From Methylophaga frappieri (lineage in GTDB: Bacteria; Pseudomonadota; Gammaproteobacteria; Nitrosococcales; Methylophagaceae), in the NCBI RefSeq assembly GCF_000260965.1, contig NC_017856.1, positions 240,001-272,000 of the forward strand: 32,000 nucleotides of DNA. Reading direction: 5' to 3'. The notes under the pieces are model-generated. The model was not told the DNA's origin. It made no database searches and worked only from the letters and a program-made list of their open reading frames with translations. Positions 1,374-27,488 of this stretch are shown piece after piece (within the stretch, counting starts at the first letter, position 1; each line of letters starts with the position of its first letter). A program made the translations under genes and the position numbers.

Positions 1374-1379
1374 GGAAGG

Positions 1380-11754: not shown

Positions 11755-12426
11755 TTACGGTTTTATAATTCCAAGTGCTACAGCGATATTTGCCAGATCG
11801 GCCGTCGTATTTGCATTTAGTTTATTTTTGATAGTGGTGTTGTAATTGGCCACCGTTTTGTAACCAAGGTGTAATTCGGCAGCGACCTCATGCGCCGTCA
11901 AGCCTTTTGCTGTTCGACAAAAAACATCAAACTCTCGCGGCGAAAGTAATTCAACTACCTCACCATAATGCAAGGTTGCCGCGGGTTGTTTAAAATCATC
12001 AAGTCCGGGAAGTATTTCAGGGTCGATATAACGCTGACCTTGCATAACTTTTGATACTGCTTCCGCTAAAACTTCAGCGGCGCTATTTTTCGTCACATAT
12101 CCTTTTGCACCGGCTTGCATAGCACGTTCAACATAGACAGACTCGTCATGAATACTGTAAACGAGAATAATTGCCGCGGGATCTTGACGCTTTAATCGTC
12201 GAATCGTTTCCAAGCCGCCAATCCCTGGCATAGATAAGTCCATCACAACCACATCAGGGTGACTTCGTTCATACTCATGACAAACGAGCTCTCCCCGATC
12301 CACGTCGGTAATCTGACCGATAAAGGCTTGTGATGATAGCAACATACGGAAGCCCGCTCTAACGACGGCATGGTCATCTACCAATAAAACATCAATTTTC
12401 TTATCGTTCATCCTGCTGTTTCTCAT
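11755..12426 (-). CDS. NarL/FixJ(LuxR)-family response regulator
   Basis: REC domain (VLLVDDHAVVRAG..., VVVMDLSMPGIGG) plus a LuxR-type HTH (LSPREFDVFCRTAKGLTAHEVAAELHLGYKTVANYNTTIKNKL). An alternative start at 12411 (MNDKKID) is possible. Either start overlaps the kinase stop at 12401-12403. Confidence 0.85.
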   Translation of the reverse strand: MRNSRMNDKKIDVLLVDDHAVVRAGFRMLLSSQAFIGQITDVDRGELVCHEYERSHPDVVVMDLSMPGIGGLETIRRLKRQDPAAIILVYSIHDESVYVERAMQAGAKGYVTKNSAAEVLAEAVSKVMQGQRYIDPEILPGLDDFKQPAATLHYGEVVELLSPREFDVFCRTAKGLTAHEVAAELHLGYKTVANYNTTIKNKLNANTTADLANIAVALGIIKP

Positions 12427-13766: not shown

Positions 13767-14897
13767 TTAAAACACATAGTTTAACCCGAGACTTACCCCA
13801 TAGCTGTCCCATTCGACTTCGTTAAATTTAGTCGTTAATTCCGTTCCATCGACCAAATAGGTCGTGTCTTTACCTCGACGATCCGCTAACCACTTTTGAA
13901 ACTGCAGATCCAAAGTCAACGCCAAGTCAGGCGTAAAATGCCACTGACTACGTAACTCGGTTACCCAGCCATAGCCATCGGCTTCGTGCTCAAAACTCTC
14001 TGGCTGGGCAAAATCGGAGCGCAAGTTCCATTCAGCCGTCGCATCATAATCAATATAGTGGTATTCAACATTGAGTCCTAAACTAAACTTACCCGTTTGA
14101 AAAAACACGCTTTCAAGCCCAACCCACGGCCCAAACCAGCTTGTGTCGTAACTGGATCTGAGTCCTGGGAATCGAATCGAAACGGGTTCAGAGTTTAGGA
14201 TGGTTTGGCGGCCATCAACTATTTTTAAATCTTGGGAGTGATAGGCGACACCCAACTTTGGCCTGAGCTCGAAACCTGCAGTACCCGCCTCATTAAATAA
14301 CCATTGATAACGGTAACCAAACCCCACTGAAAAATCCAACACGTTGCCTTCATCCGCACCATTATTTGAGCGCGAAAATTCTTCACGTCGATTATTTTCA
14401 AAATAATCTGAATCTTGATTTTCCCCATTTACGATTTCGCCCCAAACCGCATCACCAGTTACGAACCAGTTATTGCGCATCTGCAACGTCGCCCCTAAAT
14501 TCAACGTAGCAATTTCAATGTCTTTCCAGGTTAGCTCTGACAGTATATTTGGTCTCCCGCCTGGCCCAGCAATACTCCATACCAGATCATCTCGCCGATA
14601 CCCGGCCTTGAAATAAACATCCGCTTTGTCATAGGCAAAAATCGGCTTTTTCTCCGGCCGACGATCATACACATGGACTTTGAGCGTCTCCGGTTGTTTG
14701 GCTTGACCCACCGGTAAGTCTGGAATCACTTTTGCCGGAATTTGCGCATTGTGATCAGGATTTGCAATAGGTGCAGGTGACGTCGTCGACTCCGCTTCAA
14801 ATACATGCATCACTAAGCTGGGGGCAGCCTGAATAGTCGTTGAGGACAAAAACGTAACGCAAAACGATGTCACCCCTAAAAATAATCTAGCGCGCAT
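13767..14897 (-). CDS. outer-membrane beta-barrel protein, omptin-like by eye
   Basis: Signal peptide ...SSTTIQA/AP. Alternating beta-strand pattern with the C-terminal OMP signature GLNYVF. By-eye collinearity with OmpT: SELTWK vs SQLDWK, GDAVWGEIVNGENQDSDY vs AAGWTTLGSRGGNMVDQDW, and LRPKLGVAYHS vs YRLGLMAGYQES. The start overlaps the secretin stop by 11 nt. Confidence 0.6.
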   Translation of the reverse strand: MRARLFLGVTSFCVTFLSSTTIQAAPSLVMHVFEAESTTSPAPIANPDHNAQIPAKVIPDLPVGQAKQPETLKVHVYDRRPEKKPIFAYDKADVYFKAGYRRDDLVWSIAGPGGRPNILSELTWKDIEIATLNLGATLQMRNNWFVTGDAVWGEIVNGENQDSDYFENNRREEFSRSNNGADEGNVLDFSVGFGYRYQWLFNEAGTAGFELRPKLGVAYHSQDLKIVDGRQTILNSEPVSIRFPGLRSSYDTSWFGPWVGLESVFFQTGKFSLGLNVEYHYIDYDATAEWNLRSDFAQPESFEHEADGYGWVTELRSQWHFTPDLALTLDLQFQKWLADRRGKDTTYLVDGTELTTKFNEVEWDSYGVSLGLNYVF

Positions 14898-17220
14898 TGC
14901 CCATCACCTCTTCAAAGGGTAAGGCTGAAATAAGATACATAAAGCTGGTATCGCCCTGCTGTCCTCTTGCCGCTAACACCGTATTCTCAACGGAAGAGGC
15001 TAACCAGCGTCCATTAATATCTTGATAATTCACAGCCTGTTCAGTGCTCGTGCTATTGAGTATCTGTAAGCCGGTCACATACATTCCGCCACGATTCCAT
15101 GAACCTAACGGTTTCGCCACAACACGATCATCGGCAAAAATATCACGCCGCATTGCGCGATCCACAGGCACAGGTTGATAAAGCGGATCCGTCACGCGTT
15201 CAAAGTCATTCGTTCGCATCATCTCGGCAGCATACTGACTCATCTCCATATAAACCGATTGTCGACTTGCTTCCGTGCGTTGTGCAGGACTCACTTGTGA
15301 TTGAGGCGACGTTACCTCTTCATCTTTATCGATAAAGCGATTAGGGAACTCGGCTGGATCCGGATATCCCTGATTATGCGATTTGTAAAACAGATTTTCT
15401 CCATCACGACGAATCGACTCACTTTCACCTGGCGTATTCATAATACGCGGGGTAATCAATAACACCGTCTCGGTCTCTTGTTCACCATCAATTGTTGAGG
15501 TAAATATTCGGCCAACGAGAGGAATTTCACTCAGCAGCGGCACTTTTCGCTCATTACGATTTTCACTGGTTCGAATCAACCCACCCACCGCAACGGTCAA
15601 ATTATTTTTGGCCATAACCGTACCGGTCAAGCGCGCTGTATCAACTGTATCGACCTGAAGGTTCGTAATACCATTTACGGTATCTCCAACAGGTATCGTT
15701 CCGCCTCCCACGTTTACAGTAGAATTTTCCTGTTCAATATACAGCTCCACTGTACCGTCGTTATTTATTCGGGGACTGATACGTAGTGTAATACCGATAT
15801 CTTCACGGGTAATCTGAGCCTCAACAAAGGCTTGTTGCAACACAATACCGTTATCAATCACAGCAGGAAAAAACTCAAATCCTTCTGTAAGTAAAGTTTC
15901 TTCACCGATAAAGAGCTCGGCAGGACGATGATTGGATGCCACCACCATAGGATTAGAAAGCACTTTGATCCGGTTCTGCTCTTCGAGAAATTGAATATTG
16001 GCTCGTAATCGATTATTCAAAAACTCGTAAACAAAAGTCCCTGAATTTAATAATGCATTGTTTCCCAGCAATACCGGTTGCTGAGATTGATTGCTTCCAC
16101 TTGGCTGGAGGGCAAAGTTGAAAATTGAGTTGATATCCTCACCCAAGATGACGTTTAAGATACGCATTTCCAGCATCACCTGAGGCACTGGTATATCCAT
16201 TTTATCAATCATCTTCTGAATGCCAGACAATACCGACTTATCATCCGTCCGGACAATGATCATATTGTGTTCATTATTGACCGTGACATAAATCGGTTGA
16301 GATTGAACAGTGGTTTGCTGCAGGGTTTCCTGACTGACATTTCGGCTGCCAGTCAATTCAATCGCTTCGGCTATTTGCGAAATCTGATCAACACTCAATT
16401 CTTCAGCATCAAGCTGCGTGCCCGACTCAATAAAATTATTTCGGCCAAAACCACTACGGCTACTGCCAATACTGCCAAACCCACGACGTGATGATGTGCT
16501 ATTTCTGACCGAGCGGTTATTTCCTCGAACTGAACCAAATCCGCTGCTACTGTTTCCAAAGCCACTACTGTTTCCAAAGCCACTACTGTTACCAAAGCCA
16601 GTATTCCCAAAGTTATTAGAAGCCGGTGGTAAGCCCAGAGATAAGATTACTCTTGGGCCATAAATGTCTTCGATCGCCTGAGCAAGGATCTGCACATTCG
16701 CATTCAATAGCCGAAATATTTCTATATTTTCGCTTTCGCGGATAATCAGGTCTTTGCTGTATTCTTCGCGCGTCATTAACCTAAAAGTATTCGTGTCATC
16801 ATCATAGCGATACCATAAATCGCTGATTCGACTGATCGATTTCACGGCATCTAAGATCGAGGTATTTTTTAGATGGATGGTCACCTCACGGTTCGCCGCT
16901 TCACGCGTGGCAATAATATTGTGATCACTTAATTCCGATAACGCACGCACCACGTCGCTCATATTGGACCCGTTAAACTCAATCTCCTCAATCATCGTGG
17001 TGTTATCAACGTCCGGTCCTTCCTCCTGTACCGGAATCAATGTTGGCGCACGATTACCTGGCACGACAGGCTGTTGCGCGGATAGCGTCGTCGTATTTTG
17101 GGGATTAGCAATTGCCGGTCCTTGCTCACCAGACACAACGCCGCCTCCCCAAACTGGTAACACCACCATCCCGAATAAACTGGCATGGATCACACTGGAC
17201 AATAACTTCATATTCATCAT
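14887..17220 (-). CDS. secretin (GspD/PilQ/MshL superfamily) with FG/GS-rich linker and long C-terminal extension
   Basis: 777 aa with a signal peptide and N0/N1-like domains (IEFNGSNMSDVVRALSELSDHNIIA...). The secretin core signature is NNLTVAVGGLIRTSENRNERKVPLLSEIPLVGRIFTS...VLLITPRIM. ATGA overlap with the upstream gene at 17217-17220. Confidence 0.85.
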   Translation of the reverse strand: MMNMKLLSSVIHASLFGMVVLPVWGGGVVSGEQGPAIANPQNTTTLSAQQPVVPGNRAPTLIPVQEEGPDVDNTTMIEEIEFNGSNMSDVVRALSELSDHNIIATREAANREVTIHLKNTSILDAVKSISRISDLWYRYDDDTNTFRLMTREEYSKDLIIRESENIEIFRLLNANVQILAQAIEDIYGPRVILSLGLPPASNNFGNTGFGNSSGFGNSSGFGNSSSGFGSVRGNNRSVRNSTSSRRGFGSIGSSRSGFGRNNFIESGTQLDAEELSVDQISQIAEAIELTGSRNVSQETLQQTTVQSQPIYVTVNNEHNMIIVRTDDKSVLSGIQKMIDKMDIPVPQVMLEMRILNVILGEDINSIFNFALQPSGSNQSQQPVLLGNNALLNSGTFVYEFLNNRLRANIQFLEEQNRIKVLSNPMVVASNHRPAELFIGEETLLTEGFEFFPAVIDNGIVLQQAFVEAQITREDIGITLRISPRINNDGTVELYIEQENSTVNVGGGTIPVGDTVNGITNLQVDTVDTARLTGTVMAKNNLTVAVGGLIRTSENRNERKVPLLSEIPLVGRIFTSTIDGEQETETVLLITPRIMNTPGESESIRRDGENLFYKSHNQGYPDPAEFPNRFIDKDEEVTSPQSQVSPAQRTEASRQSVYMEMSQYAAEMMRTNDFERVTDPLYQPVPVDRAMRRDIFADDRVVAKPLGSWNRGGMYVTGLQILNSTSTEQAVNYQDINGRWLASSVENTVLAARGQQGDTSFMYLISALPFEEVMGNAR
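16534..16612 (-). repeat. in-frame 18-nt tandem repeat encoding (GFGNSS)n inside the secretin gene
   Basis: The plus strand shows CCAAAGCCACTACTGTTT / CCAAAGCCACTACTGTTA / CCAAAGCCAGTATTCCCA, preceded by the degenerate copy CCAAATCCGCTGCTACTGTTT. This translates on the minus strand to NTGFGNSSGFGNSSGFGNSSSGFG. Confidence 0.8.
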
Positions 17221-17660
17221 CTTAAAACGCGAATCCGGCCTAATGTACCGGTTTCAATGGTTATACTCAGACGGCTGATTTCCGAGATTCGAATTGCGCT
17301 GGCTGGTTGACGTGGGTCAATATTAATTTCGTCTCCTTCCCGCACCATGAAAACACCACTACCGGCGATATCCAATAAAGCCAGTTCTTCGCCAGTTTCC
17401 TTTTCCGTAATTAATCCACGCAAGCGCATTCGTGGTATTTGAAAATCAGGAATATCTCCGGGACGAAAACCAAAAGCATCACTGCCAATATTCGATAGGG
17501 TCCCGGCCTGTTCATACATCAACGCACTTGGCGTAAACGGATCACGAATCGTCACTTCCGATGATTCGCCAAGACTCACTGGCTCAAAAGCCATTGCTGA
17601 GAGTGGCATCCAAACGGAACAAAGCCCTATTAAAATCGGAATGTTAGGTTTGCTGTACAT
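17217..17660 (-). CDS. periplasmic PilP / GspC-HR / MshK-like secretin-coupling protein (putative)
   Basis: 147 aa with signal peptide ...PLSAMA/FEP. The C-terminal beta-rich segment LRGLITEKETGEELALLDIAGSGVFMVREGDEINID resembles PilP/GspC HR domains. It sits between the platform and secretin genes, abutting the platform stop (TAAATG) and overlapping the secretin start. Confidence 0.45.
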   Translation of the reverse strand: MYSKPNIPILIGLCSVWMPLSAMAFEPVSLGESSEVTIRDPFTPSALMYEQAGTLSNIGSDAFGFRPGDIPDFQIPRMRLRGLITEKETGEELALLDIAGSGVFMVREGDEINIDPRQPASAIRISEISRLSITIETGTLGRIRVLR

Positions 17661-18884
17661 TTATCTTCCTCCGCCAGCCAGAGCGAATAAAGCCTGAAAA
17701 AAGGCGTAATAGACAAAACCCACCATGCCGCCAATCAGTAATATCATTGCCGGCTCAATCATTGCTGAAAGGCGTTTTATCGCGATCTCCAACAGACTTT
17801 GATAATAAACACCCAGCTCCTGCAAAATCTGATCTAGTGAGCCTGTTCGCTCACCGATGGCAATCATTTGTGTCACAAGGGGAGGCATTTTTCGATGTTC
17901 TATACTTGAAGCCAGATCCCGACCGGCAAATACCCGATCCGATGCAGAGCGCATCGTATCGGCATATATTTTGTTAGCGATCAAGTCTGAGGTAATTTTC
18001 AACCCCTCAAAAATCGTCACACCACTGCGTAACAAAATGGACATCGCCCAATTCATCTGGGCCATGGAGCCATAAACAATCATCGGCCCAAATACCGGAA
18101 AACTCAGTAAAATCCGGTCTATCAGGCGTCTGCCTTTGTAAGTTTTGTAAATAATAAAAAGTAAAATTGTGGTGACAATCGCCGTGCCGATTATAAATAA
18201 TCCGTTTTCTCTCAAATAGGCAGCACCATCAATTAAACTTTGCGTCGACGCCGGTAAAGGCCGGTTTTGTCGTTCAAGAAACGTGGCAAATTTCGGAATT
18301 ATCGCGACCACCATAAAAGTCGCCACCCCGATGGCTGCAATCACAACGACAACCGGGTAAATCATGGCATTGATCATTTGTTTTCGAAGCTGGGATTTTT
18401 TTTCTAAATGAATCGCCAACCGCTCCATGATGACATCCAGCTCCCCGGTATTTTCACCTGCCACCACCAGATTGATAGCGATATCACTAAACACATCATT
18501 ATGTTTTTTTAGTGCAACCGATAATGATTTTCCGGCCTGAATATCACGATGCATCTTCCGAATAGCAAGATTAAGCCGCGGACTCGTAATTTGATTTGAT
18601 GCCAGCTCTAAGCATTCCGCCACAGCTAACCCCGCGCGGAGCATAAACGCCATCTGCCGATAAAAGAAAATCAGGGAATCATTAGAAACAGAGCGTTGTG
18701 TTGCATACCAGTCTGCAAAGGTATCTTGCCCTAAAAATCCACGACGTTTTTTCTCGTTAATTTTTAAAACGCGCAGCCCTTCGGTTCGCAGTGCTTGCGC
18801 AGCTGCATTCAAGTTATCCGCATGCAACTGCCCAGCACGTTCTGTACCTGTTCGGGTGAGTGCTTGATAAGCAAATACCGGCAT
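17661..18884 (-). CDS. type II secretion / type IV pilus inner-membrane platform protein (GspF/PilC/MshG family)
   Basis: 407 aa with a duplicated T2SSF-type architecture: two cytoplasmic helical domains, each followed by TM segments. The conserved GERTGSLDQIL (GExxGxL) motif is present. It follows the ATPase gene after a 1-nt gap. Confidence 0.9.
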   Translation of the reverse strand: MPVFAYQALTRTGTERAGQLHADNLNAAAQALRTEGLRVLKINEKKRRGFLGQDTFADWYATQRSVSNDSLIFFYRQMAFMLRAGLAVAECLELASNQITSPRLNLAIRKMHRDIQAGKSLSVALKKHNDVFSDIAINLVVAGENTGELDVIMERLAIHLEKKSQLRKQMINAMIYPVVVVIAAIGVATFMVVAIIPKFATFLERQNRPLPASTQSLIDGAAYLRENGLFIIGTAIVTTILLFIIYKTYKGRRLIDRILLSFPVFGPMIVYGSMAQMNWAMSILLRSGVTIFEGLKITSDLIANKIYADTMRSASDRVFAGRDLASSIEHRKMPPLVTQMIAIGERTGSLDQILQELGVYYQSLLEIAIKRLSAMIEPAMILLIGGMVGFVYYAFFQALFALAGGGR

Positions 18885-18885
18885 A

Positions 18886-20535
18886 TCAGGTCACCGTGGC
18901 CTTTTGTATCTGCTTGAACAAGGCCACATTTTTAACTTCATCTAATGTGGTTAAGCCCCTAACAACTTTTTCACAGCCATCTTGCCACATAAACTTCAAG
19001 CGTGAACCGGCACTGGCCTCCAGTGTCTCTTCATCTGCACCACGCGCAACTAAACGGGCTAATTTCTCATCAAACCAGAGTGTTTCAAATAAGCCCAACC
19101 GGCCTCGAAATCCTTGTCCCTGACACACCGCACACCCAACAGGCTCATATATTTCCACAGCCACTTCACGACCTAATAAGGCTAATTCTTCTTCGGTGGC
19201 TGCTCGGGGTTGCGCGCAATGACGGCAAAGTCGTCTGACAAGACGCTGTGCAATAACAGCGGTCATCGTTGAGCCAATCAAAAACGGTTCACAGCCAATA
19301 TCGACTAAGCGCGTCACCGCACTGACGGCATTGTTTGTATGCAATGTAGAAAAAACCATATGCCCCGTCATCGCCGCTTTAACCGCCACATCGGCGGTTT
19401 CTGCATCACGAATCTCCCCCACCATTAAGACATCGGGGTCATGTCGCAGTAACGAACGCAACGCGTCGGCAAAATTGATTTTAGGGCCAGTTTGAATTTG
19501 CGAAACCCCATCAATCACATATTCAATCGGGTTTTCAACGGTCATAATATTAATATCTGCCGCATTGATTTCCTGCAGCGCGGCAAACAAAGTAGTCGAT
19601 TTACCACTTCCCGTTGGCCCCGTCAGCAAAATCATGCCATATGGCTTTCTTATTGCCTCTTGAAACGCGGCCAAATCCGCTTCAAGAAAGCCTAGGTCGG
19701 TGAGCGTCAAATCACTACTTTCTTGTCCCAGTAGTCGCATGGTGATGCGTTCACCATGTCGAATAGGTGCGGTAGCGACCCGGATATTAAATTCCAAATC
19801 AACGGGGGGGCCAAGATAATAGGTAAACCCACCATCTTGCGGCATCCGTTGCTCCGCAATATCCAATCCAGCCAACACTTTGACACGCGAAATTAGCCCC
19901 GCAGCCATACTGATATCACTCTCCAGGGGATAATCCGTTAATTTTCCATCAACCCGAAACCGAACACGCAAACCGTCATCCTCGGCCATAAAATGCACAT
20001 CGGATGAACGATTAAGATAGGCATCACGCAGTATCCGATCCAATAGCTCAATCAAGTCGGTTTCGGTTGATTCCTGACTGCCCGATTGAGCCTGCACAAT
20101 GGCTGAATTGGCTAATTGGCGTTTGACCATTAATTGCAACTGAGCCGGATCTGCCATCACCACTGGCAAATCACGTCCCATTAATCGGCGAGCTGATTCC
20201 GTCCCATTTCGATCGTGCGGGTCTCCTGTGACCAATAAATCCTCACCATCCAAAATGATTGCTAACAACATTTTGCGGTGAACCAAACTGGCCGGCATTT
20301 TTTTGGTTAAAACCGTGTTGATTTGAGCATGCTGTAAATCGACAAATGGCAACCCTTGCTCTTGGGCAAGAGCACGATGCAGCGCGGAGAGTGGAATACG
20401 ATATTCCGCTAAAACCTTACCCAATATGGGCGTACGCTCACGACGGGACTTGATACGCAGCTCATCAATTTCCGGCTGGGCCAACAGGCCGGTATCGATT
20501 CCTGCTTTTATCAATTGGTCATCGGTTATCGCCAT
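18886..20535 (-). CDS. type IV filament assembly ATPase (GspE/PilB/MshE family)
   Basis: 549 aa with a T2SSE_N-like N-terminus (ILGKVLAEYRIPLSALHRALAQEQGLPFVDL). Walker A is GPTGSGKST, the Asp box/Walker B is DPDVLMVGEIRD, and the His box is TGHMVFSTLHTN. A tetracysteine zinc motif is present (CRHC...CAVC). A GAGAGTAGG Shine-Dalgarno sequence precedes the ATG. Confidence 0.9.
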   Translation of the reverse strand: MAITDDQLIKAGIDTGLLAQPEIDELRIKSRRERTPILGKVLAEYRIPLSALHRALAQEQGLPFVDLQHAQINTVLTKKMPASLVHRKMLLAIILDGEDLLVTGDPHDRNGTESARRLMGRDLPVVMADPAQLQLMVKRQLANSAIVQAQSGSQESTETDLIELLDRILRDAYLNRSSDVHFMAEDDGLRVRFRVDGKLTDYPLESDISMAAGLISRVKVLAGLDIAEQRMPQDGGFTYYLGPPVDLEFNIRVATAPIRHGERITMRLLGQESSDLTLTDLGFLEADLAAFQEAIRKPYGMILLTGPTGSGKSTTLFAALQEINAADINIMTVENPIEYVIDGVSQIQTGPKINFADALRSLLRHDPDVLMVGEIRDAETADVAVKAAMTGHMVFSTLHTNNAVSAVTRLVDIGCEPFLIGSTMTAVIAQRLVRRLCRHCAQPRAATEEELALLGREVAVEIYEPVGCAVCQGQGFRGRLGLFETLWFDEKLARLVARGADEETLEASAGSRLKFMWQDGCEKVVRGLTTLDEVKNVALFKQIQKATVT

Positions 20536-20552
20536 GCCTACTCTCGACTACC

Positions 20553-21215
20553 CTACAACGCTAAAACCAGATCGGTTTTTAATAATTGCGACATACCACG
20601 TAAAGGCGCCACATCCAGTTTTTGAATGTTCACCTGCACCACCGTGACCTGATAAGGCAACTCATCCAACCCATAAATAAATCGTCTCAGAGAGGGAAAA
20701 TCACCATCAATTTCTAATCGTTGCATGGGTCTGGCATACATGGATCCCGGTGACAGCCGTCTTATCCACCCTGCCTCTGGCGGCACAATAATTTCTTCTG
20801 AGCTGGTATTATTGCGTCGATTATTACCCAGTCGAACCGGATCCGGACGCAAATTTTGATTCACCCGAATCCGAATTCCACTATCTCTGGCTAACTCGGA
20901 AATGCGTACCCGTAACTCCTGCGAATCAATCGGTGCCAAGAGCGTTTCCACCTGCTGGGCATTTTCACGCACCGCATCAAGGGCTTTTTCCAAATCATCC
21001 AACTCGGCATTGATATCGTCGATTTTCTCGCGTGGCTCTTCCGGTATTTCCATTGTGGAGATTCGATTCATGGTAGCGTTCTTTTGACGCTCTAAGGCCG
21101 CGATTTGTGTTGAACGTGGGTCATAGCGCAAATAACCATACCCGCCTAACAACACCACAACCAAAATGGCACCCGCCAGCCATTTTTCCCGTTGATTTAA
21201 TTGTTTTAATTTCAT
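20553..21215 (-). CDS. bitopic PilO / GspM / MshJ-like alignment-complex protein (putative)
   Basis: 220 aa. It has a short cytoplasmic N-terminus, one TM segment (WLAGAILVVVLLGGYGYL), a coiled-coil region, and a C-terminal alpha/beta region. ATGA overlap with the upstream gene at 21212-21215. Confidence 0.5.
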   Translation of the reverse strand: MKLKQLNQREKWLAGAILVVVLLGGYGYLRYDPRSTQIAALERQKNATMNRISTMEIPEEPREKIDDINAELDDLEKALDAVRENAQQVETLLAPIDSQELRVRISELARDSGIRIRVNQNLRPDPVRLGNNRRNNTSSEEIIVPPEAGWIRRLSPGSMYARPMQRLEIDGDFPSLRRFIYGLDELPYQVTVVQVNIQKLDVAPLRGMSQLLKTDLVLAL

Positions 21216-22981
21216 GGCGCTTCCTCTTCAATCGGCACCACATGCAAGATACTCATCGATACGGAATAACCACTCATGTTCATCGGACCGATTTTTTCAA
21301 ACACTTGAATATCACGAACCTCCATATCCCACGCTGCCACTGCTAACTTCATATTTTGCACAAATTCCTGACCGGCACTTTCAGTCAAAGCCCAAGCATC
21401 AATATTGAAGTTATCTTTAACAATATGGCCCGGCCGCACTGCGGTCGGAGCAGTATCTGCCTGCACACCAACCCGCCGCCCCATCTCATCTATCCGGTTG
21501 ATGATGATTTGTTCGTTAACGGTATTCTGGATAATGCCCAGCACTGCCTGCACCATCAGTGACCGTTCTGGCATTTCTTGCCCAAAGAAATCCAGCCGTG
21601 ACTCCATCCGGCGCTGACTCTCCTGTTGGGCCTCTAATTCTGCTTGACGCTTATCAATCTCTTCGCGCTGTGCATTAATTCTGGCAACCGCATCATCAAG
21701 CACCTTGGCGCGGGCGTCGATTTCTGCTTTTTCTTTACTGACGTTGTTGTGTTGAATAAACATCACCAGTTCGGCAACCAAAATCAACGCAATAAGGCCA
21801 CCCACCAGTAATGCCGCCTGGTTTTCCTGACGTTTTAATGGCGGCGGCAAGGGGCCCCCCTGACGGATTAAACTAATGCGTTTACCGCCTTTTAAATTGA
21901 AAATATGCCGTGCAGCAGCCATCACGCCCGGCGATAAATACTCCGGATTTTGACTTGGCAAAAGTGACACTTCATGGCCAATCGCTTCTTTAAACTGGGC
22001 TTGCAAATCTGGCAGATTATCGGTCGGACAACTCAGCAAGATTGCTGGATGCTGAGTCAGATTTTCACTGTGATAGGCTTCCAGACAAGCATTGAGCATT
22101 GACTCGGTATGATTCAGGAGATGCCGAACCGAGACCACATTTTGACGATGAAGACGCACTGCCGTCGTGGTGAGTGATGAGGTTTCTAAAATCAACGCAG
22201 ACTTATCGGTTTGCTCCAATAAAGCCAGACTATTGCCAGTCAGCGGCATCAAACCAAGCAACGTTAAATCATGATCATCACACAGCGTTGTCCATTTTTG
22301 GATGGATGAGCTATACGCGGCGCTGACTAACCAGTTCCATACACCGGGCGCATCATCAACCTCACCCTGAGCTGACCAGCCACATTGCACTTCATCATCT
22401 TCATCCCGGAGCCAATCCTGTACCACAAACAAAGATTGAACCTGTTCACGACTGACATAGCCCAGATCCATGGCCAATTCGCCAAACCGTTTGGTTGGGG
22501 TGCGATCAACCGAACGTGGCGCGCCAGTATTTTTGGCTTGTCGTTTTTGAATATCATTGATTTCGACTATTTGCTCATGACTTAACATGCCATGTAATTC
22601 GAGCAAAAAGCCAAGTGTCCATTGAGCTTGATGTTGCATCAAAAGCGGTTCTACTTCCCAGCGAACCAATTCGTGCATTTGCTCAACCGGTTTCGGTTTT
22701 TTGGCCGACACCGGTAATTCAATAATCGCATTCATGGCAGATGGCGTCAGCACCACAACATGCTTGCCTTTCCAGCCCTGCTGGCGCACAGAAAGTAACA
22801 CATGCTCAAATGCCTCAGCCGGATCCAGATGATCGGCTTCCGCCTCTGCTGAGATATACAGGCTTTTCCCTTTTCGACCAAACACGGTACCCCGCAGGAG
22901 CCTCGCATCCCACTCGCAGATAAGAATTTGATGACTGTGAATTTTTGCAAAATGAGCTTTTATATCGTCAACTAAACTCAT
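21212..22981 (-). CDS. PilM+PilN fusion / GspL / MshI-like bitopic protein (putative)
   Basis: 589 aa. A cytoplasmic region of ~385 aa carries PilM/GspL-like strings (VLTPSAMNAIIELPVSAKKPKPVEQMHELVRWEVEPLL). It is followed by one TM segment (ALLVGGLIALILVAELVMFI), a coiled coil, and a periplasmic domain of ~120 aa. Confidence 0.55.
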   Translation of the reverse strand: MSLVDDIKAHFAKIHSHQILICEWDARLLRGTVFGRKGKSLYISAEAEADHLDPAEAFEHVLLSVRQQGWKGKHVVVLTPSAMNAIIELPVSAKKPKPVEQMHELVRWEVEPLLMQHQAQWTLGFLLELHGMLSHEQIVEINDIQKRQAKNTGAPRSVDRTPTKRFGELAMDLGYVSREQVQSLFVVQDWLRDEDDEVQCGWSAQGEVDDAPGVWNWLVSAAYSSSIQKWTTLCDDHDLTLLGLMPLTGNSLALLEQTDKSALILETSSLTTTAVRLHRQNVVSVRHLLNHTESMLNACLEAYHSENLTQHPAILLSCPTDNLPDLQAQFKEAIGHEVSLLPSQNPEYLSPGVMAAARHIFNLKGGKRISLIRQGGPLPPPLKRQENQAALLVGGLIALILVAELVMFIQHNNVSKEKAEIDARAKVLDDAVARINAQREEIDKRQAELEAQQESQRRMESRLDFFGQEMPERSLMVQAVLGIIQNTVNEQIIINRIDEMGRRVGVQADTAPTAVRPGHIVKDNFNIDAWALTESAGQEFVQNMKLAVAAWDMEVRDIQVFEKIGPMNMSGYSVSMSILHVVPIEEEAP

Positions 22982-23172
22982 GCGTTTATCCTGAACTGCA
23001 GATAGGGGGTGGTCAGTAACATTGCAAGCAAGCCATTGGCATAGCTTACTGCTGCGTATGGGGAATAATCTTGCTCGTCAATTTTGGGTAGCAAAATTGC
23101 TGTATCAGTAATGATCGGAACACTCCATTGCACCCTACTTATGCTTAATGAAGAAGCGATATTTTTAATCAT
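22978..23172 (-). CDS. small hypothetical protein (64 aa) embedded in the filament operon
   Basis: With the ATG at 23172 (MIKNIASS...), the ORF makes ATGA overlaps at both ends: 23169-23172 with the 529-aa prepilin stop and 22978-22981 with the next start. It has a C-terminal hydrophobic stretch GLLAMLLTTPYL. I recognised no family. Confidence 0.4.
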   Translation of the reverse strand: MIKNIASSLSISRVQWSVPIITDTAILLPKIDEQDYSPYAAVSYANGLLAMLLTTPYLQFRINA

Positions 23173-24758
23173 AAGCCTCCCCAAAAAAGTGGTTCAGGCT
23201 TAAGCGGTATGCTCGCTCTTGGCACGGCAAAAACTTTTTTTGTAGCAGTTGAAAAGTTACCTTGTTCACAACTAGCGTCGGCATAAACGTACCCGTTACT
23301 ATCACAAACCACTGTCAGGGTATGGATGCCGGCAGGTAGTCTTAAAGAGGCTGGAATAGTTAAATCATTACCGTTTTTAAGTGTACCGGGTGGCACGGCA
23401 AAAGTGTCTCCTGACAATGTCATCACGATGTTATTTTCCAGCGTGAATGTTTCTGAGACCGTTATCTCTGCCCCACCAAGAGTAACTTTACTATCTATGA
23501 CTTCACTACTACTTCCAGCCGGTAAGTCCACTGTAGTATCACCCGGTAATGTCAGTGTCGTCCCGGTAATATTGCTGCCAGGCGGTACATAAATAACCCG
23601 CTTTGACAGGTTACTGGCAATAAAACCTACAACCGCGGTAGAGGCTGTCAATTCCGCGCCTGATGTTGTTGTGACAGTAGAATGATTACCATCTGGTAAT
23701 GGCGATGTTCCATCTGAAGTTTGTAAGTTTGTCATTTGAATTGTGCAGCCACCGGCACAATACGGTGCTATTTGATATTCATCAATATAATCTTCTGGCT
23801 GCGGAGTTACTTCGTCGGTATAGCTAATTACTGTGCCGGGTTGAAGTGTGATTTCATTACCTGCTTTATTCACTGGTATTGAAAATTGAATAAATTCTAA
23901 ATCGGCAACTGGCACAACAATATTCCCAAACTCATCGGTCTCCATGTCAAGGGTTGGGAAAACTGCCGATAGTGATAAATCTAAATCGCGCTCAGTTACT
24001 GTGGCCGGCCATTGAGGTGGTGCTCCATTTTCTGGAAAATTTAATTTCAGCCTGAAATTCGGAGGGGGATCCTGAAGTGGAAGAAAGTTTATAAAGGCAG
24101 CAACGTTTATCCAGTCATTACCAACCGTGACGGTAAAATCATTTAGTTCCAACAATGTGACACTGATATCGTCACTGTTGCTTGATAAATCCAATCCATT
24201 ACTGGTGATATCAACTTGACCACTAAACGCATCGACCTGATAAATCCAGCCATAGTTCAGATGATCCTCGACTGGGTCAGCATCAATATTGTTATAGCCA
24301 TCACGAAAGCTTTTGATACCACTACCTTCCTGATTCGCCCTTAAATAAGGGCCACGCCAGCCAGCGCCAGAGCCTGTTGCCGGATCCAGTTGCCAAATGC
24401 GAATATCATTAGACGGATCATTATCACAGGACGATTCGAAAATACCATTTTCCAGCGAGACAGCGGCACCTAATTCAACTAATTCTCTCAGGCACAACGG
24501 TAAACGGCCCACATCTGAAACAAAACCACTTAATTCAGGCGATCCATTCACTGTTCGACTAGTATCCCCTGCAATTGCTTGTTTAATCAGGTCCAACCGT
24601 TGTTGGGTTTCATCAAATTGCGCCTGTTGTTCTATATTATCGGTAAATAACAAACCGGCAGAAGCCAGCAAACCAACCAAAAATAAAACCAGCACCATCT
24701 CCAGCAGGGTAAAACCGCGAGATTGGTGAAGAGATGACATTGAGGCCCGTATCGTCAT
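23169..24758 (-). CDS. large prepilin-type (class III signal peptide) protein, candidate minor/tip pilin
   Basis: MTIRASMSSLHQSRG/FTLLEMVLVLFLVGLLASAGLLF matches the G/FTLxE prepilin cleavage-methylation motif with Glu5. The mature part is ~514 aa, rich in Thr/Ser/Val/Asn beta-type sequence, with several Cys pairs. Confidence 0.75.
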   Translation of the reverse strand: MTIRASMSSLHQSRGFTLLEMVLVLFLVGLLASAGLLFTDNIEQQAQFDETQQRLDLIKQAIAGDTSRTVNGSPELSGFVSDVGRLPLCLRELVELGAAVSLENGIFESSCDNDPSNDIRIWQLDPATGSGAGWRGPYLRANQEGSGIKSFRDGYNNIDADPVEDHLNYGWIYQVDAFSGQVDITSNGLDLSSNSDDISVTLLELNDFTVTVGNDWINVAAFINFLPLQDPPPNFRLKLNFPENGAPPQWPATVTERDLDLSLSAVFPTLDMETDEFGNIVVPVADLEFIQFSIPVNKAGNEITLQPGTVISYTDEVTPQPEDYIDEYQIAPYCAGGCTIQMTNLQTSDGTSPLPDGNHSTVTTTSGAELTASTAVVGFIASNLSKRVIYVPPGSNITGTTLTLPGDTTVDLPAGSSSEVIDSKVTLGGAEITVSETFTLENNIVMTLSGDTFAVPPGTLKNGNDLTIPASLRLPAGIHTLTVVCDSNGYVYADASCEQGNFSTATKKVFAVPRASIPLKPEPLFWGGL

Positions 24759-24765
24759 CGCCCAA

Positions 24766-25596
24766 TTACCGCAACAGACACAGAATCAGATCATCGCTTC
24801 CGGCAGGCGGGACACACATATCATCAGTAGCCAGATCATATTCATCACTGGCACTTTCCAACACGCCATTCTCCCCCGTGCTGACTAAGCGGACAATATT
24901 GCCCGGAATAATATAATCGGCCGGTAATGCGCCGTCTGTGACCGACTGACAGTTATAGAGATCTGTTGTCCCATCTATCGCCAGTTGACCGGTTACGGTC
25001 GCATGTTCTTGACAATACACGGTTTGGTTGTAGTCCAACTCAGGGTCAAGCAACCGATAACGGTTACCCCAGCCATCCGTCAACGCCTCTTTTGATATAT
25101 AAGGGCCATTCCAGCCAATCTGCCGCGTGCGGTCCCAAAACAACACGCTATGTGCCGCTGCATCATAAGGAAACACGTTTAACATCAAAAGCGCATGACT
25201 GGCTTTGTCTGCCCCACCTGAGTTAGCCTGGGATTGACACCAGGTGTGCCAGTCATCTCTATCGGTATCAGATGGAAAAAGATAGCTACCGCTAAATTGG
25301 TTGCCGTAAGCATTTTCAAAATCAAATGGATTATATTCACCGTCGCGGTAAACACGACAAGGCAATTCGCGGTTATCACGGCGGAATTGCAGCAAGGCTT
25401 TTTGCAGCTCGACCATTTCCAGTCGCGTCACGTTGAATCGAGCCTGATCTTCATTGCCCTCAAAGGCATTCAGCGCCGCAACACTAATCACCGCCAGCAA
25501 CGTAATCACCAACAAAATTTCGATTAGGGTAAAACCCTGCTGTGACTGTCTGCCAGCCGAAAAACTGAGGAGTCGGTTAAACAATAAACGCCGCAT
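24766..25596 (-). CDS. prepilin-type protein (GspG/pseudopilin-like N-terminal region), 276 aa
   Basis: MRRLLFNRLLSFSAGRQSQQG/FTLIEILLVITLLAVISVAALNAF. This is followed by the pseudopilin-like helix LEMVELQKALLQFRRDNRELP. The leader is 21 aa. Confidence 0.8.
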   Translation of the reverse strand: MRRLLFNRLLSFSAGRQSQQGFTLIEILLVITLLAVISVAALNAFEGNEDQARFNVTRLEMVELQKALLQFRRDNRELPCRVYRDGEYNPFDFENAYGNQFSGSYLFPSDTDRDDWHTWCQSQANSGGADKASHALLMLNVFPYDAAAHSVLFWDRTRQIGWNGPYISKEALTDGWGNRYRLLDPELDYNQTVYCQEHATVTGQLAIDGTTDLYNCQSVTDGALPADYIIPGNIVRLVSTGENGVLESASDEYDLATDDMCVPPAGSDDLILCLLR

Positions 25597-25719
25597 TTAC
25601 TTGTTCCCGATTGTGGTCATTTTGTCAGTGCGCTAAGCACACCCCCTGACGCTGCATAACATCCTGTTGATACAAAACGTTCTGCAAATATGCAAGATAT
25701 TGGCGCAACGTTCTGGTTG

Positions 25720-25750
25720 ATAAAGAAAGGGCGGACCAGGCCCGCCCTTT
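25720..25750 (-). terminator. Rho-independent terminator immediately after the 337-aa prepilin gene
   Basis: The minus strand reads AAAGGGCGG-GCCTGGT-CCGCCCTTT followed by CTTTAT. It lies 27 nt after the TAA at 25777-25779. Confidence 0.7.
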
Positions 25751-25776
25751 CATATTTCTCAACTTAAGCGATGAGA

Positions 25777-26790
25777 TTAATCATCATCACCTGCTGAAGA
25801 TTGGTTGGCTTCAGAAACCAACTGGTCGATGTTTTTACCATCGGTAGAAACAATCGTGATCAAACGCAGTTGATCATTCCATTCCCATTCATTATCTACG
25901 TCGTCATATTGACCGGCGTGGAACAGACCGATATAACGCGAATAGTGAATTTCTGGGTTAATCGCGGTATCACCGTCACCAGTTGTCGCGATGTAAGATG
26001 GTGATTGGGCAATCGCCACATTACTAAAGGCGGTAGAGGCCGCAGCATCACCACCAAAGCCCAGCGCGATCAGCGCATGACATTCGTCACCTTCCAGCGC
26101 ATCACCATAAGCATTTTGCAGTTCGTTATTAGAGATTGAAACAGTTGGGTCAAAAGCAGCAGCTGGATAACCACCGGCTGCACCGAAAGTAGTACATTGC
26201 GGGCTAGGAACTACCGCAAGGCTGACCGGAAAATCACCATCTTCGATTTCTACTTCTGCTGAAAGGCCCGCACTTTCGTTATGCATACGGTTTGGTGCGC
26301 CGGTTGGAGAATCATCAACTTCGGCAGCAGCTAAGACTTCTTGCAGCTCTTCAATACCTGACTCTTCAAACATTTCAACCAAAACAGCATCAAGACCAGC
26401 TGAACCAGCGACATCCCATTCGCCGAGGAAACCTTTCATGCCAGAAGCAGCAAAGGTCAGTTCATCGCCAGCCGCATCCATCAGGGTATCCCATTGATTT
26501 GGATAGACATTTTCTACCGCACGGTAGGTCCGAATTGCACGGTCAAGTGTCCCGATTGTATTCGCAGCTTGGGCTGCTTCCGCAGATTCACCAACATTTT
26601 CGTAGGCAACCAGCGCACCTGTTGCCAAAATAGCGATCAGGGTGATAACAACTAATAGCTCAAGTAAAGTAAAACCTTTTTCTTTACCTTGCAGTTTTTG
26701 CGCTTTGGCACGCAGTTTTGCATCTTTGATGACTGACAAATCCGCTTTACGGAATTTGGCAATCGCCGATTTCATTTGATTGATATTCAT
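25777..26790 (-). CDS. very large, highly acidic prepilin-type protein with a 39-aa basic leader (candidate major filament subunit)
   Basis: The leader is MNINQMKSAIAKFRKADLSVIKDAKLRAKAQKLQGKEKG, followed by /FTLLELLVVITLIAILATGALVAYEN. The mature part is 298 aa, with only about 8 Lys/Arg against several dozen Asp/Glu by my count. It has one Cys pair (SPQC...DEC) and its own terminator downstream. Confidence 0.8.
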   Translation of the reverse strand: MNINQMKSAIAKFRKADLSVIKDAKLRAKAQKLQGKEKGFTLLELLVVITLIAILATGALVAYENVGESAEAAQAANTIGTLDRAIRTYRAVENVYPNQWDTLMDAAGDELTFAASGMKGFLGEWDVAGSAGLDAVLVEMFEESGIEELQEVLAAAEVDDSPTGAPNRMHNESAGLSAEVEIEDGDFPVSLAVVPSPQCTTFGAAGGYPAAAFDPTVSISNNELQNAYGDALEGDECHALIALGFGGDAAASTAFSNVAIAQSPSYIATTGDGDTAINPEIHYSRYIGLFHAGQYDDVDNEWEWNDQLRLITIVSTDGKNIDQLVSEANQSSAGDDD

Positions 26791-26952
26791 CGAATAATCT
26801 CTCTCTTTGATGCCGCAGCTACCCCGAGCAGCCTGTTGGCTAAATGGTTAAATAAAGATTCAAACTGATGTGACCCCTTCACACTCATGGTCATCAAAGT
26901 AATGTGGTGAGCCGAGTTACAATGTTTGTTTTGCTGATTCACGCCAAACCCC

Positions 26953-27147
26953 TCAGGCAGACTGCGGTGCATCAATGACAAACCGGTACTGCTTACCACA
27001 ATGTAGAATCACTTCTTTTTGATGACGCTTGAGGATCCGTACCTCAACCCGAATATCGCCATAACCATCATGGGCAAGCACCTCATCAACCAAATCCATC
27101 AGCTTAGCTTTTACCGGCTGTGAGGAATTTTGACTGGTTAATGACAT
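26953..27147 (-). CDS. small YezD/DUF2292-like protein (64 aa from the ATG; the track ORF starts at an upstream TTG)
   Basis: MSLTSQNSSQPVKAKLMDLVDEVLAHDGYGDIRVEVRILKRHQKEVILHCGKQYRFVI. The G-x-hydrophobic beta-hairpin pattern resembles YezD-type mini-proteins (...YGSVxIxIxxGxVVxIExxEKxR). The ATG at 27147 is preferred to the TTG at 27168. Confidence 0.4.
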   Translation of the reverse strand: MSLTSQNSSQPVKAKLMDLVDEVLAHDGYGDIRVEVRILKRHQKEVILHCGKQYRFVIDAPQSA

Positions 27148-27168
27148 TATCTTTACCACGCTGATCAA

Positions 27169-27488
27169 TTTTCGGTGACTTGGAGTGTAGAAGAGTAAGG
27201 AAGTTTTTCCCTATAGGAAATATTCCTGAATTTGGTATTTTTTCACATTTTTACAAAGCCATTACTTTTATTTATTATTTATCAGACACTTAAAATAGTT
27301 TTAACCAATCGTATAATTTTTATTTAGGCCGACATTATGTCTAAACGGGAAGTATTTCCTGCAAATAAACGTGAATTCCCGGAATTAATTAAGGATTAAA
27401 TCGATCAAAACATCGAGACAATAGCCAAAAAATTCCTGTAATTCTCCCTACAGAACTACAGGTGAATTTTCTTCACGCTTTTCTTTGA
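27169..27488 (-). promoter_or_regulatory. AT-rich 320-bp control region with clustered GGAA/TTCC palindromes upstream of the filament locus
   Basis: GGAAGTTTTTCC at 27199-27210, TTCCCTATAGGAA at 27207-27219, GGAAATATTCC at 27216-27226, and GGAAGTATTTCC at 27348-27359. A perfect 13-bp palindrome AATTCCCGGAATT lies at 27374-27386. No long ORF is present on either strand. Confidence 0.4.
27423..27462 (-). terminator. weak candidate terminator after the PglL-like gene
   Basis: The minus strand reads CCTGTA-N16-TACAGG followed by AATTTTTT. The stem is short (6 bp plus 3 interrupted bp), so it is tentative. Confidence 0.3.

Follow-up and report, generated by a model that had tools for sequence, protein, structure and literature searches.

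A gene cluster of Methylophaga frappieri that probably represents a distinct lineage of type IV pilus machines

Background

What kind of machine is encoded by a compact row of genes on the minus strand of the Methylophaga frappieri chromosome, and does it belong to any named class of type IV filaments? The genes lie in a stretch of 32,000 nucleotides (contig NC_017856.1, positions 240,001 to 272,000), called the window below, whose first letter is position 1. A description made from the letters alone (the original prediction) had regarded positions 13767-27168 as a permuted, minimal type IV filament machine that fits no canonical class. We propose that this locus is a self-contained type IV pilus machine and represents a lineage of its own, as yet uncharacterised, within that branch of the type IV filament superfamily which includes the type IVa pilus (T4aP), the type II secretion system (T2SS) and the mannose-sensitive haemagglutinin (MSHA, or MSH) pilus; we put the probability of this reading at about 60%. 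The machine is a new variant within the known superfamily and not a categorically new one. Few bacterial nanomachines have been studied as thoroughly as type IV filaments, and still hundreds of "generic" loci are unassigned. Denise et al. (2019; PMC6668835) left 884 such systems without a class, and an unclassified locus is therefore not rare in itself. In the present study, a coherent and phylogenetically broad family with a fixed architecture is described.

Results

A conserved single-locus filament machine

Eleven large open reading frames (ORFs), all on the minus strand, were found exactly at the coordinates stated earlier; the 589-aa protein among the products is 100% identical to Q7C_264 of M. 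frappieri, and the small ORF at the upstream end is Q7C_270. The close packing of the genes was verified: start and stop codons overlap as ATGA at 23169-23172, 22978-22981, 21212-21215 and 17217-17220, the secretin and barrel genes share 11 nt at 14887-14897, the remaining junctions from the gene of the 276-aa prepilin to that of the barrel are 0-17 nt (gaps of 0, 1, 7 and 17 nt), and 22 nt separate the barrel gene from the histidine kinase gene that follows. All core parts of a type IV filament machine are present and intact, namely an ATPase, a platform, a secretin, three prepilins, a PilM-like protein and a PilO-like protein.

A profile of the 589-aa protein (PilM-N) retrieved 74 loci from a species-representative genome collection, in which ORFs were called and compared by BLASTP with the window proteins. 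Almost all of these loci, which span five phyla, share the order small protein, major pilin, minor pilins, PilM-N, PilO-like protein, ATPase, platform, PilP-like protein and secretin, so that the gene order first noticed in M. frappieri recurs across phyla. The hosts include methylotrophs and methanotrophs (Methylophaga, Methylomicrobium, Methylotuvimicrobium, Methylobacter, Methylomonas and Methylophilaceae, including Methylotenera) as well as Colwellia, Moritella, Neptunomonas, Motiliproteus, Chromatiaceae, Thiodiazotropha, Nitrospina, Planctomycetota and a metagenome-assembled genome of Verrucomicrobiota. When 1.84 billion cluster representatives were searched exhaustively with a profile, 554 relatives of PilM-N were obtained at E<=1e-3 and 223 at E<=1e-30, and all named matches are "hypothetical protein". 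By this measure the locus is not a one-off; its family comprises at least several hundred clusters at 50% identity. No description of this cluster type was found in the literature.

Within Methylophaga, the loci keep the same chromosomal neighbours, with suf genes on one side and Hsp20/PepSY genes on the other, and the cluster is therefore a stable chromosomal trait there; orthologues at this position are 58-86% identical across species. Rearrangements were observed elsewhere. The secretin gene has moved upstream in methanotroph loci, and in loci of the Neptunomonas/Motiliproteus type the PilP-secretin pair lies upstream and a third ATPase gene has been added (16339-17682 of locus L067, with equivalents in L056, L057, L063 and L065). 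This third ATPase (429-456 aa) has no N-domain, and the two examples placed in the ATPase tree group loosely with PilB references. Distant clades also hold a fourth pilin-sized ORF.

Position relative to the named classes

The locus falls within the generic type IV filament superfamily, with class-III pilins, a PilB/GspE ATPase, a GspF/PilC platform and a secretin. Assignment to a particular class failed at every curated equivalog model. Among T2SS models, GspD (TIGR02517) reached 137 bits against a cut-off of 351, GspE (TIGR02533) 463 against 630, GspF (TIGR02120) 301 against 424 and GspG (TIGR01710) 46 against 89. Among T4aP models, PilB (TIGR02538) reached 462 against 676, the PilC models 299 and 256 against 700 and PilQ (TIGR02515) 97 against 284, and the MSHA model MshL (TIGR02519) gave 90 against 250 bits. 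GspE and PilB match the ATPase equally well, whether NCBIfam models or solved structures (330-356 bits) are used, and BfpD matches it far more weakly (130 bits). The weak match to BfpD, together with Phe at position +1 of all three pilins, places the locus outside type IVb.

Marker proteins of the named classes were also absent. BLASTP searches with E. coli GspC, GspK, GspL, GspM and GspO gave no match in the window or in the 74 loci, and searches with Aeromonas MshI, MshM and MshN gave none in any of the 74 loci. Judged from gene content, the loci hold no small pilin genes of the GspI/J kind; GspI and GspJ were not used as BLASTP queries. Scans with Pfam and NCBIfam models found no prepilin peptidase, PilT or PDZ-bearing GspC within the 32-kb window, as had been stated. 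The MSHA reference proteins were taken from a 4.94-Mb Aeromonas caviae replicon (L075, NZ_AP026896.1), which is filed as a plasmid in PLSDB, is almost unannotated and is evidently a chromosome. An MSHA cluster on a Vibrio taketomensis plasmid was dropped as a reference, since the matching strand held no ORF of at least 200 aa.

A neighbour-joining tree of ATPases (328 columns, 100 bootstraps, rooted on in-operon PilT) was built from 23 family members and eight references, namely E. coli K-12 GspE and HofB, pO157 EtpE, Comamonas GspE, Aeromonas MshE (the single MshE reference), Vibrio cholerae EpsE, and Geobacter and Myxococcus PilB; core sequences of PilB and EpsE came from PDB alignments. The family ATPases are monophyletic at 99% bootstrap, and no reference nests inside them. 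Thus, within the limits of eight references and the neighbour-joining method, the phylogeny that the original prediction had called for places the ATPase in a clade of its own. Profile and synteny searches assigned the locus to no characterised system, and no nesting in a well-studied clade was seen; within these limits, the view that it fits no canonical class has held.

Distant members of the family carry a PilT gene inside the operon. Placed in all distant clades between the genes of the PilO-like protein and the extension ATPase, it encodes ~360 aa and scores 404-432 bits with TIGR01420 (cut-off 319). The loci without PilT group into a single clade (100%), whose sister is a planctomycete locus with PilT (97%); therefore, PilT was lost once, and the family was ancestrally a retractile pilus. 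The word "minimal" accordingly suits the Methylophaga sub-clade and does not extend to the distant members, with their in-operon PilT and fourth pilin-sized ORF.

Motor, scaffold and secretin

The labels given earlier to the ATPase, platform and secretin were borne out by Pfam and NCBIfam. The extension ATPase (549 aa; 18886-20535, minus strand, as are all features described below) matches Pfam T2SSE at 1e-120 and, with its MshEN-fold N-domain, MshEN at 6e-7; a Walker A box and two CxxC pairs are visible by eye. When the N-termini were compared across the family, the glycines of the cyclic di-GMP (c-di-GMP) motif were absent from this N-domain. The inner-membrane platform of the GspF/PilC family (407 aa; 17661-18884; Pfam T2SSF 1e-52) shares 27% identity with E. 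coli GspF, 27% with Aeromonas MshG and 23% with HofC. The secretin (777 aa; 14887-17220; Pfam Secretin 2e-32) ends in an extra domain (aa 641-766, nt 14923-15300) related to DUF3438 (Pfam, 5e-10) and TIGR03749 (9e-13), a protein family of integrating conjugative elements. This domain is kept in 31 loci and is missing from the shorter secretins of methanotrophs, Methylophilaceae and Moritella. A low-complexity linker rich in Gly, Ser, Asn and Phe, with GFGNSS-type repeats and Arg (aa 196-262, nt 16435-16635), lies between the N-terminal domain and the secretin core.

The 589-aa protein (21212-22981) had no match in Pfam, and the Pfam models of PilM, PilN, PilO and PilP gave no significant match. 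Its AlphaFold2 model (predicted local distance difference test, pLDDT, 82) shows an actin-like cytoplasmic domain, a transmembrane helix near aa 387-405, a long coiled coil and a periplasmic alpha/beta domain. Foldseek ranked PilM first (5eou, E=4e-14), followed by FtsA and then by the cytoplasmic domain of GspL (E=5e-7). From this fold, the protein is therefore a PilM-PilN fusion with GspL-like architecture, as had been predicted; the PilN part is weakly supported, at E=8.5e-4 by hhalign. The bitopic protein encoded next (220 aa; 20553-21215) matches Pfam T2SSM below cut-off (1.7e-4), and hhalign aligned it over 163 columns with the 215-aa protein at the PilO position of the Aeromonas MSHA cluster (probability 92.8%, E=4e-7); it is thus PilO/GspM/MshJ-like, in agreement with its first label. 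For the putative PilP/GspC-HR/MshK-like protein (147 aa; 17217-17660), position, signal peptide and a conserved beta-rich C-terminus of 70 aa are consistent with the label; it precedes the secretin in nearly all loci, and its profile gave no significant match against PDB, Pfam, GspC or MshK, including by hhalign.

Two further ORFs had been described differently. The 64-aa ORF at 22978-23172, which has ATGA overlaps at both ends and had been listed as a gene of the cluster, is not conserved: tblastn gave no match below E=1, and most relatives have no room for it, the stop codon of the minor-pilin gene overlapping the start codon of PilM-N. Whether the ORF is coding is doubtful; its removal leaves a 187-nt gap. 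The outer-membrane beta-barrel (376 aa; 13767-14897) had been called omptin-like. This was ruled out, as Pfam gives the Pom family (PF17251, E=2.9e-110) and a weak match to DUF4421 as the sole other one. Genes for Pom barrels were detected at 13 of the 74 loci, in 12 of them directly downstream of the secretin, and are absent from the closest Methylophaga relatives. The barrel is a variable accessory of the machine.

A pair of MshEN-type motifs in the PilM-like domain

The PilM-like domain contains an insert (aa 121-188, nt 22418-22621) with two tandem 24-residue motifs, WTLGFLLELHGMLSHEQIVEINDIQ and KRFGELAMDLGYVSREQVQSLFVVQ, which match the c-di-GMP-binding repeats of V. cholerae MshE, KRLGDLLVEEGIVSEAQLEQALNAQ and RRLGDTLISLGFLSETQLLNFLAQQ. 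The consensus tested was two tandem copies of RLGxxLLxxGxIxxxQLxxALxxQ. A regular expression for the motif matched 58 times in the homologues (41 kaa) and never in other ORFs (744 kaa). Across 18 homologues, the Gly, Gln and Arg positions do not vary, and the second motif persists in members from Nitrospina, Chromatiales and Planctomycetota. The insert is modelled by AlphaFold2 as two helix-turn-helix pairs, and a profile search of PDB gave the N-domain of MshE as its best match (E=0.047), with both MshE motifs covered by the alignment; the Pfam MshEN model gave no match on the insert. Among the titles and abstracts listed for MshEN together with PilM, only ATPase-borne domains are mentioned. 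We hypothesize that this insert might sense c-di-GMP.

Pilins and a putative glycosylation enzyme

A six-frame motif scan of the 32 kb detected exactly three class-III signals, with leaders of 39, 21 and 15 aa, Phe at +1 and Glu at 5, which agrees with the three prepilins reported earlier. The major prepilin (337 aa; 25777-26790; N_methyl and TIGR02532 matches) has a basic 39-aa leader (26674-26790) with the cleavage junction G|FTLLELLVV. Its mature form of 298 aa has a pI of 4.05, two Cys, and 50 acidic versus 8 basic residues. The leader follows the consensus MNIxQMKxAIxKFRxADxSxIKDxxLRAKAQKLQxKxKG|FTLLELLVV (39-40 aa), which is common to Methylophaga, Colwellia, Methylobacter, Neptunomonas and Motiliproteus. 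In Methylophilaceae, Methylomicrobium and Moritella, the leader is short. The long leader had been taken as a type IVb trait and is instead a conserved sequence specific to the family. Such conservation across distant genera is unusual for a cleaved peptide. Wherever the long conserved leader occurs, a Q7C_270-type gene is present in the locus too, with one possible exception (L058); the reverse is not true.

About 25 nt after the pilin stop lies the strong hairpin that had been described as a terminator (25725-25751; 10-bp stem, 7 G-C pairs), which probably acts as a terminator or attenuator between the highly expressed pilin gene and the assembly genes. The two minor prepilins follow. The first (276 aa; 24766-25596) has a 21-aa leader, a GspG-like GWxGPY motif and matches to Pfam T2SSG (5e-8) and N_methyl; hhalign aligned its N-terminal 64 columns with E. 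coli GspG at a probability of 98.7%. In many gammaproteobacterial loci its leader (25534-25596) opens with a conserved M(R/W/G)(C/F/R)LLF; an in-frame stop immediately precedes the first codon of the ORF. The second (529 aa; 23169-24758) has a 15-aa leader and an N-methyl signal recognised by Pfam and NCBIfam; its C-terminal part varies in relatives from about 300 to 640 aa, and it is a candidate tip or adhesin subunit.

Upstream of the pilin unit, a separate transcription unit (27489-29282) encodes a 597-aa membrane protein resembling PglL and O-antigen ligases (Wzy_C_2 8.5e-50, Wzy_C 3e-16, PglL_A 2.8e-5), with a terminator-like hairpin at 27435-27462. Homologues adjoin the major pilin gene in Methylophaga, Methylophilaceae and Methylomonas loci, and the protein is a probable pilin O-oligosaccharyltransferase. 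An abundant extracellular "prepilin-type" protein, Metal_1116, has been reported in Methylomicrobium album BG8 (PMC13274458) and could be a homologue of the major pilin.

A small conserved protein and a structured pilin leader RNA

Q7C_270 (64 aa; 26953-27147) is the first gene of the pilin transcription unit and encodes a basic, cytoplasmic protein. Each of its 236 homologues is annotated as "hypothetical", and none has a Pfam domain. Its core, HDGFGDIRVEVKILKRxQKEVILHCGKQYRFVVD, is near-invariant from Gammaproteobacteria to Nitrospinae, and Q7C_270 is the most conserved protein of the cluster, far above the structural proteins. The AlphaFold2 model (pLDDT 71.5) consists of one helix and three strands. 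The label YezD-like was rejected: none of 21 homologues matched the corresponding Pfam family (DUF2292) at E<=1, and neither a fold search nor a PDB sequence search gave a match for the protein. In two Nitrospina-type loci and one Thiohalocapsa locus (L045:5435-5893, L064, and L050 on the minus strand), the homologues have long Arg-rich C-terminal tails with DRR/ERR repeats, a feature that suggests nucleic-acid binding.

A structured leader RNA (26788-26884) lies between the Q7C_270 gene and the pilin ATG and takes up the 96 nt that precede the latter. It comprises hairpin 1 (26868-26884) and hairpin 2 (26813-26839), both with G-rich loops, a conserved single-stranded AUGACCAAC and a GAGAGA Shine-Dalgarno region. 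A covariance model (R1) built from 12 sequences gave exactly one match per locus in 26 loci (E<=6e-5), each directly upstream of the pilin gene, and no other matches in 1.27 Mb. Pairing was observed in 97.9% of cells, and 8 of 13 pairs showed double compensatory changes; the pairing is somewhat inflated, since the alignment was fitted to the covariance model. None of 500 shuffles reached the observed values, slid controls paired at 25-46%, and RNAalifold recovered hairpin 2 with compensatory changes from an independent MAFFT alignment. G.U intermediates are present, which speaks for an RNA and against a DNA operator. In several loci it begins within about 25 nt of the stop of the Q7C_270-type gene; co-transcription of this gene with the pilin gene is therefore probable, and the element would be intercistronic.

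The leader RNA had no match at the gathering score in Rfam. A riboswitch or other known RNA was rejected, the weak Rfam matches being driven by a terminator hairpin; a CRP-type DNA palindrome was rejected for hairpin 1, in which the spacing is N5 and not N6 and the G.U intermediates favour RNA; and a pseudoknot between the G-rich loops and the C-rich spacer was inconsistent across sequences by eye. The element may be a binding site for Q7C_270 or an element of mRNA processing or stability.

Regulatory genes and the rest of the window

Downstream of the barrel gene, a two-component system (11755-13744; Pfam and NCBIfam) consists of a HisKA_3 sensor kinase (12401-13744) and a NarL/LuxR-type response regulator (11755-12426). 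The pair adjoins the cluster, downstream or divergently upstream, in Methylophaga, Colwellia and Alteromonadales loci, and its products are probable dedicated regulators of the cluster. The two genes overlap by 26 nt (12401-12426), and the periplasmic part of the kinase has a weak match to LapD_MoxY_N (E=7e-4, below cut-off). The unit as first delimited was too short; the PglL-like oligosaccharyltransferase and the two-component system belong to it as well.

The remainder of the window encodes a fumarate-reductase/succinate-dehydrogenase pair, MetG, a PepSY protein, Hsp20, Suf proteins, and sucrose-phosphate synthase and phosphatase. The sucrose genes (516-3515) encode a 711-aa synthase with GT4 and S6PP domains, followed by a separate sucrose-6-phosphate phosphatase; they probably serve osmolyte synthesis and are unrelated to the pilus locus. 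The "unique pilus / Type II secretion module" of Methylotenera mobilis JLW8 (Mmol_1380-1409; PeerJ 2013) was considered as a homologue and rejected, because according to that study it is a Tad/Flp system, with Flp pilin, CpaB, TadE and an A24 peptidase, and hence unrelated; the module is described there as induced by methanol up to about 1000-fold.

Discussion

The present results can be combined into a mechanism by which a surface fibre might be produced. The sequences show the gene identities, the synteny, the separation of the family, the conservation of the motifs and the covariation of the RNA; the fibre itself, its glycosylation, the binding of c-di-GMP, the regulation and the biological role are inferred from them. 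A promoter upstream of Q7C_270 would drive a short, highly expressed unit that consists of the small protein, the leader RNA, the major pilin and the hairpin attenuator. The 337-aa prepilin would be inserted into the inner membrane, where a prepilin peptidase from another part of the genome would cut its 39-aa leader after Gly-1 and methylate Phe+1, and the very acidic mature pilin of 298 aa would probably be O-glycosylated by the adjacent PglL-like enzyme. Two GspG-like minor pilins might prime the fibre, the large variable one probably sitting at the tip. A hexameric ATPase would turn the GspF/PilC platform, and the PilM-PilN fusion, the PilO-like protein and the PilP-like protein would connect this motor to the secretin, which in M. 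frappieri may be coupled to the Pom-type barrel. Assembly would probably be gated by c-di-GMP via the MshEN-type pair in the PilM-like domain and not via the N-domain of the ATPase, which has no such motif, and transcription would probably be controlled by the HisKA_3/NarL-type system. In the sub-clade of Methylophaga, methanotrophs and Methylophilaceae, which has lost the in-operon PilT, the pilus might be non-retractile or might borrow a housekeeping PilT. Adhesion to, or aggregation on, surfaces or partner cells is the likely role.

We favour a pilus because distant members carry an in-operon PilT that passes a curated cut-off, because the large first pilin gene has its own hairpin attenuator and its own leader RNA, because three lineages show linkage of a PglL-like gene to the pilin gene, and because GspC, GspK and GspI/J were not detected and no conserved substrate gene is present in the flanks. 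Several points weigh against this reading. The family is known from genes alone, and no filament has been seen in any member. By their sequences, the parts lean slightly to T2SS or MSH: the secretin best matches GspD, the GspG motif occurs in both minor pilins, the PilM-N fusion mimics GspL, and the best detectable relative of the PilO-like protein is an Aeromonas MSHA protein. PilT is absent from the locus in this sub-clade, and no prepilin peptidase was located in a search that covered the window and the 74 loci. The ATPase tree has eight references and was built by neighbour joining, and the sister relation of the family to GspE plus MshE has a bootstrap of 22%. As for the c-di-GMP step, the similarity of the insert to MshEN is short and, at E=0.047 against PDB, weak, with Pfam silent and a longer spacer.

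The main rival reading is a divergent T2SS, in which a periplasmic pseudopilus would push one or a few substrates through the secretin, possible substrates being encoded elsewhere or being the large acidic "pilin" itself. The ATPase is marginally closest to GspE, the best matches of the secretin are GspD, a T2SSG domain match in the 276-aa pilin is joined by GspG-like N-terminal regions in both minor pilins, the PilM-N fusion has the architecture of GspL, and the locus has no PilT in this clade. We nevertheless consider this explanation unlikely, as the GspD, GspE, GspF and GspG equivalogs all remain under cut-off, GspC, GspK, GspL and GspM went undetected in the 74 loci, where small GspI/J-like pilin genes are missing too, and no substrate gene is conserved in the neighbourhood. 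In addition, at 298 aa the mature first pilin is roughly double the size of GspG, its gene has an attenuator of its own and a linked glycosylase gene, and sister clades carry PilT within the operon; a T2SS is not known to have PilT. A divergent member of the MSHA class is much less probable still. MSH systems are likewise encoded in a single locus without a prepilin peptidase (PMC6668835), the only significant remote match of the PilO-like protein is to the Aeromonas MSHA cluster, and MshEN-type motifs are present; against this, MshL reached 90 bits where 250 are needed, and MshN and MshM were found in no locus, the latter being mandatory in the MacSyFinder model of MSH (PMC6668835). Moreover, Aeromonas MshE, the one MshE in the tree, lies outside the family clade, the gene order differs, and the motifs sit in the PilM-like protein and not in the ATPase.

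Other functions or fates have still less to recommend them. Pili of the T4aP branch often serve DNA uptake, and together with the PilT of distant members this might point to a competence pilus or an electron-conducting one. Such a function is very improbable here: no ComEA, ComEC or DprA genes are linked in the loci, the strongly acidic pilin (pI 4.05) would be unfavourable for DNA binding, and its aromatic content of 7.7% (23/298) lies under the threshold of 9.8% for e-pili given in a preprint (bioRxiv 10.1101/668343). The least credible explanation is that of an inactive remnant of a once functional system. It would account for the loss of PilT relative to sister clades and for the non-conserved 64-aa ORF that fills a gap where relatives overlap directly, and it is at odds with eleven intact and tightly coupled genes, with intact catalytic motifs, with orthologues maintained at 58-86% identity at one chromosomal position across Methylophaga, and with compensatory evolution in the leader RNA. 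A self-contained pilus machine of its own lineage thus remains the preferred explanation.

A more far-reaching proposal would unite these features. The family might constitute an eighth type IV filament class, ancestrally a single-operon retractile pilus, with c-di-GMP sensing by MshEN motifs in the scaffold rather than by the ATPase and with post-transcriptional control of a very large, glycosylated acidic pilin by the leader RNA and Q7C_270, and its PilT-less sub-clade might have spread horizontally between gamma- and betaproteobacterial methylotrophs and methanotrophs. We regard this combination, taken as a whole, as speculative and rather doubtful. If true, the PilT-less sub-clade could mediate known physical partnerships between the methylotroph and methanotroph guilds. 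The family is common in oxidisers of methane and methanol (Methylophaga, Methylococcales and Methylophilaceae), and a role in attachment would bear on the assembly of carbon-cycling consortia. If it is an ordinary adhesion pilus, the main value of the present study would be a better annotation of what are now "hypothetical proteins". The departures from textbook machines are a c-di-GMP receptor motif in a PilM/GspL-type scaffold, one of the largest major pilins with a conserved leader of 39-40 aa, and a dedicated leader RNA before the pilin gene with a small protein encoded just upstream.

Comparison with known systems places these departures in context. With the T4aP of Pseudomonas and Myxococcus (PilA, PilBCD, PilMNOPQ and PilT), the family has in common the Phe+1/Glu5 pilins, the extension ATPase, the PilC-type platform, an actin-like PilM (the best fold match), PilN/O-type bitopic proteins, the secretin and, in distant members, PilT. 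It differs in forming one operon-like locus with the pilins first and the secretin last, in the fusion of PilM with PilN, in its 298-aa mature pilin with a conserved 39-aa leader and in the extra C-terminal domain of the secretin; the locus is without PilD, without PilT in this clade, without the FimU/PilVWXE-PilY1 set and without a PilF/Tgl pilotin. The T2SS (GspC-O) resembles it in the fused GspL-like PilM-N, in the GspG-like motifs of two pilins, in the single locus and in a secretin and ATPase that are marginally closest to GspD and GspE, whereas the locus is without GspC, GspI/J/K, GspL/M (by sequence) and GspO, the gene order is different, the large major subunit has an attenuator and a linked glycosylase, and PilT occurs in sister clades. 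The MSHA system of Vibrio and Aeromonas (MshH-Q) is alike in its single locus without prepilin peptidase, in the remote PilO-like similarity and in the MshEN-type motifs; here, MshM and MshN are absent, order and pilin set differ, MshE lies outside the family clade, and the motifs are in the PilM-like scaffold, whereas in MSHA they are in the ATPase. Finally, the MshEN receptors (V. cholerae MshE and the GSPII domains of Thermus PilF) share the same two tandem motifs, (R)xGxxLxxxGxxxxxQ(L/V)xxxxxxQ, each predicted to form a helix-turn-helix. In those receptors the pair lies at the N-terminus of a traffic ATPase, and the spacer between the motifs is about 5 aa in MshE, whereas in the present family the pair lies inside an actin-like PilM domain with a spacer of about 19 aa.

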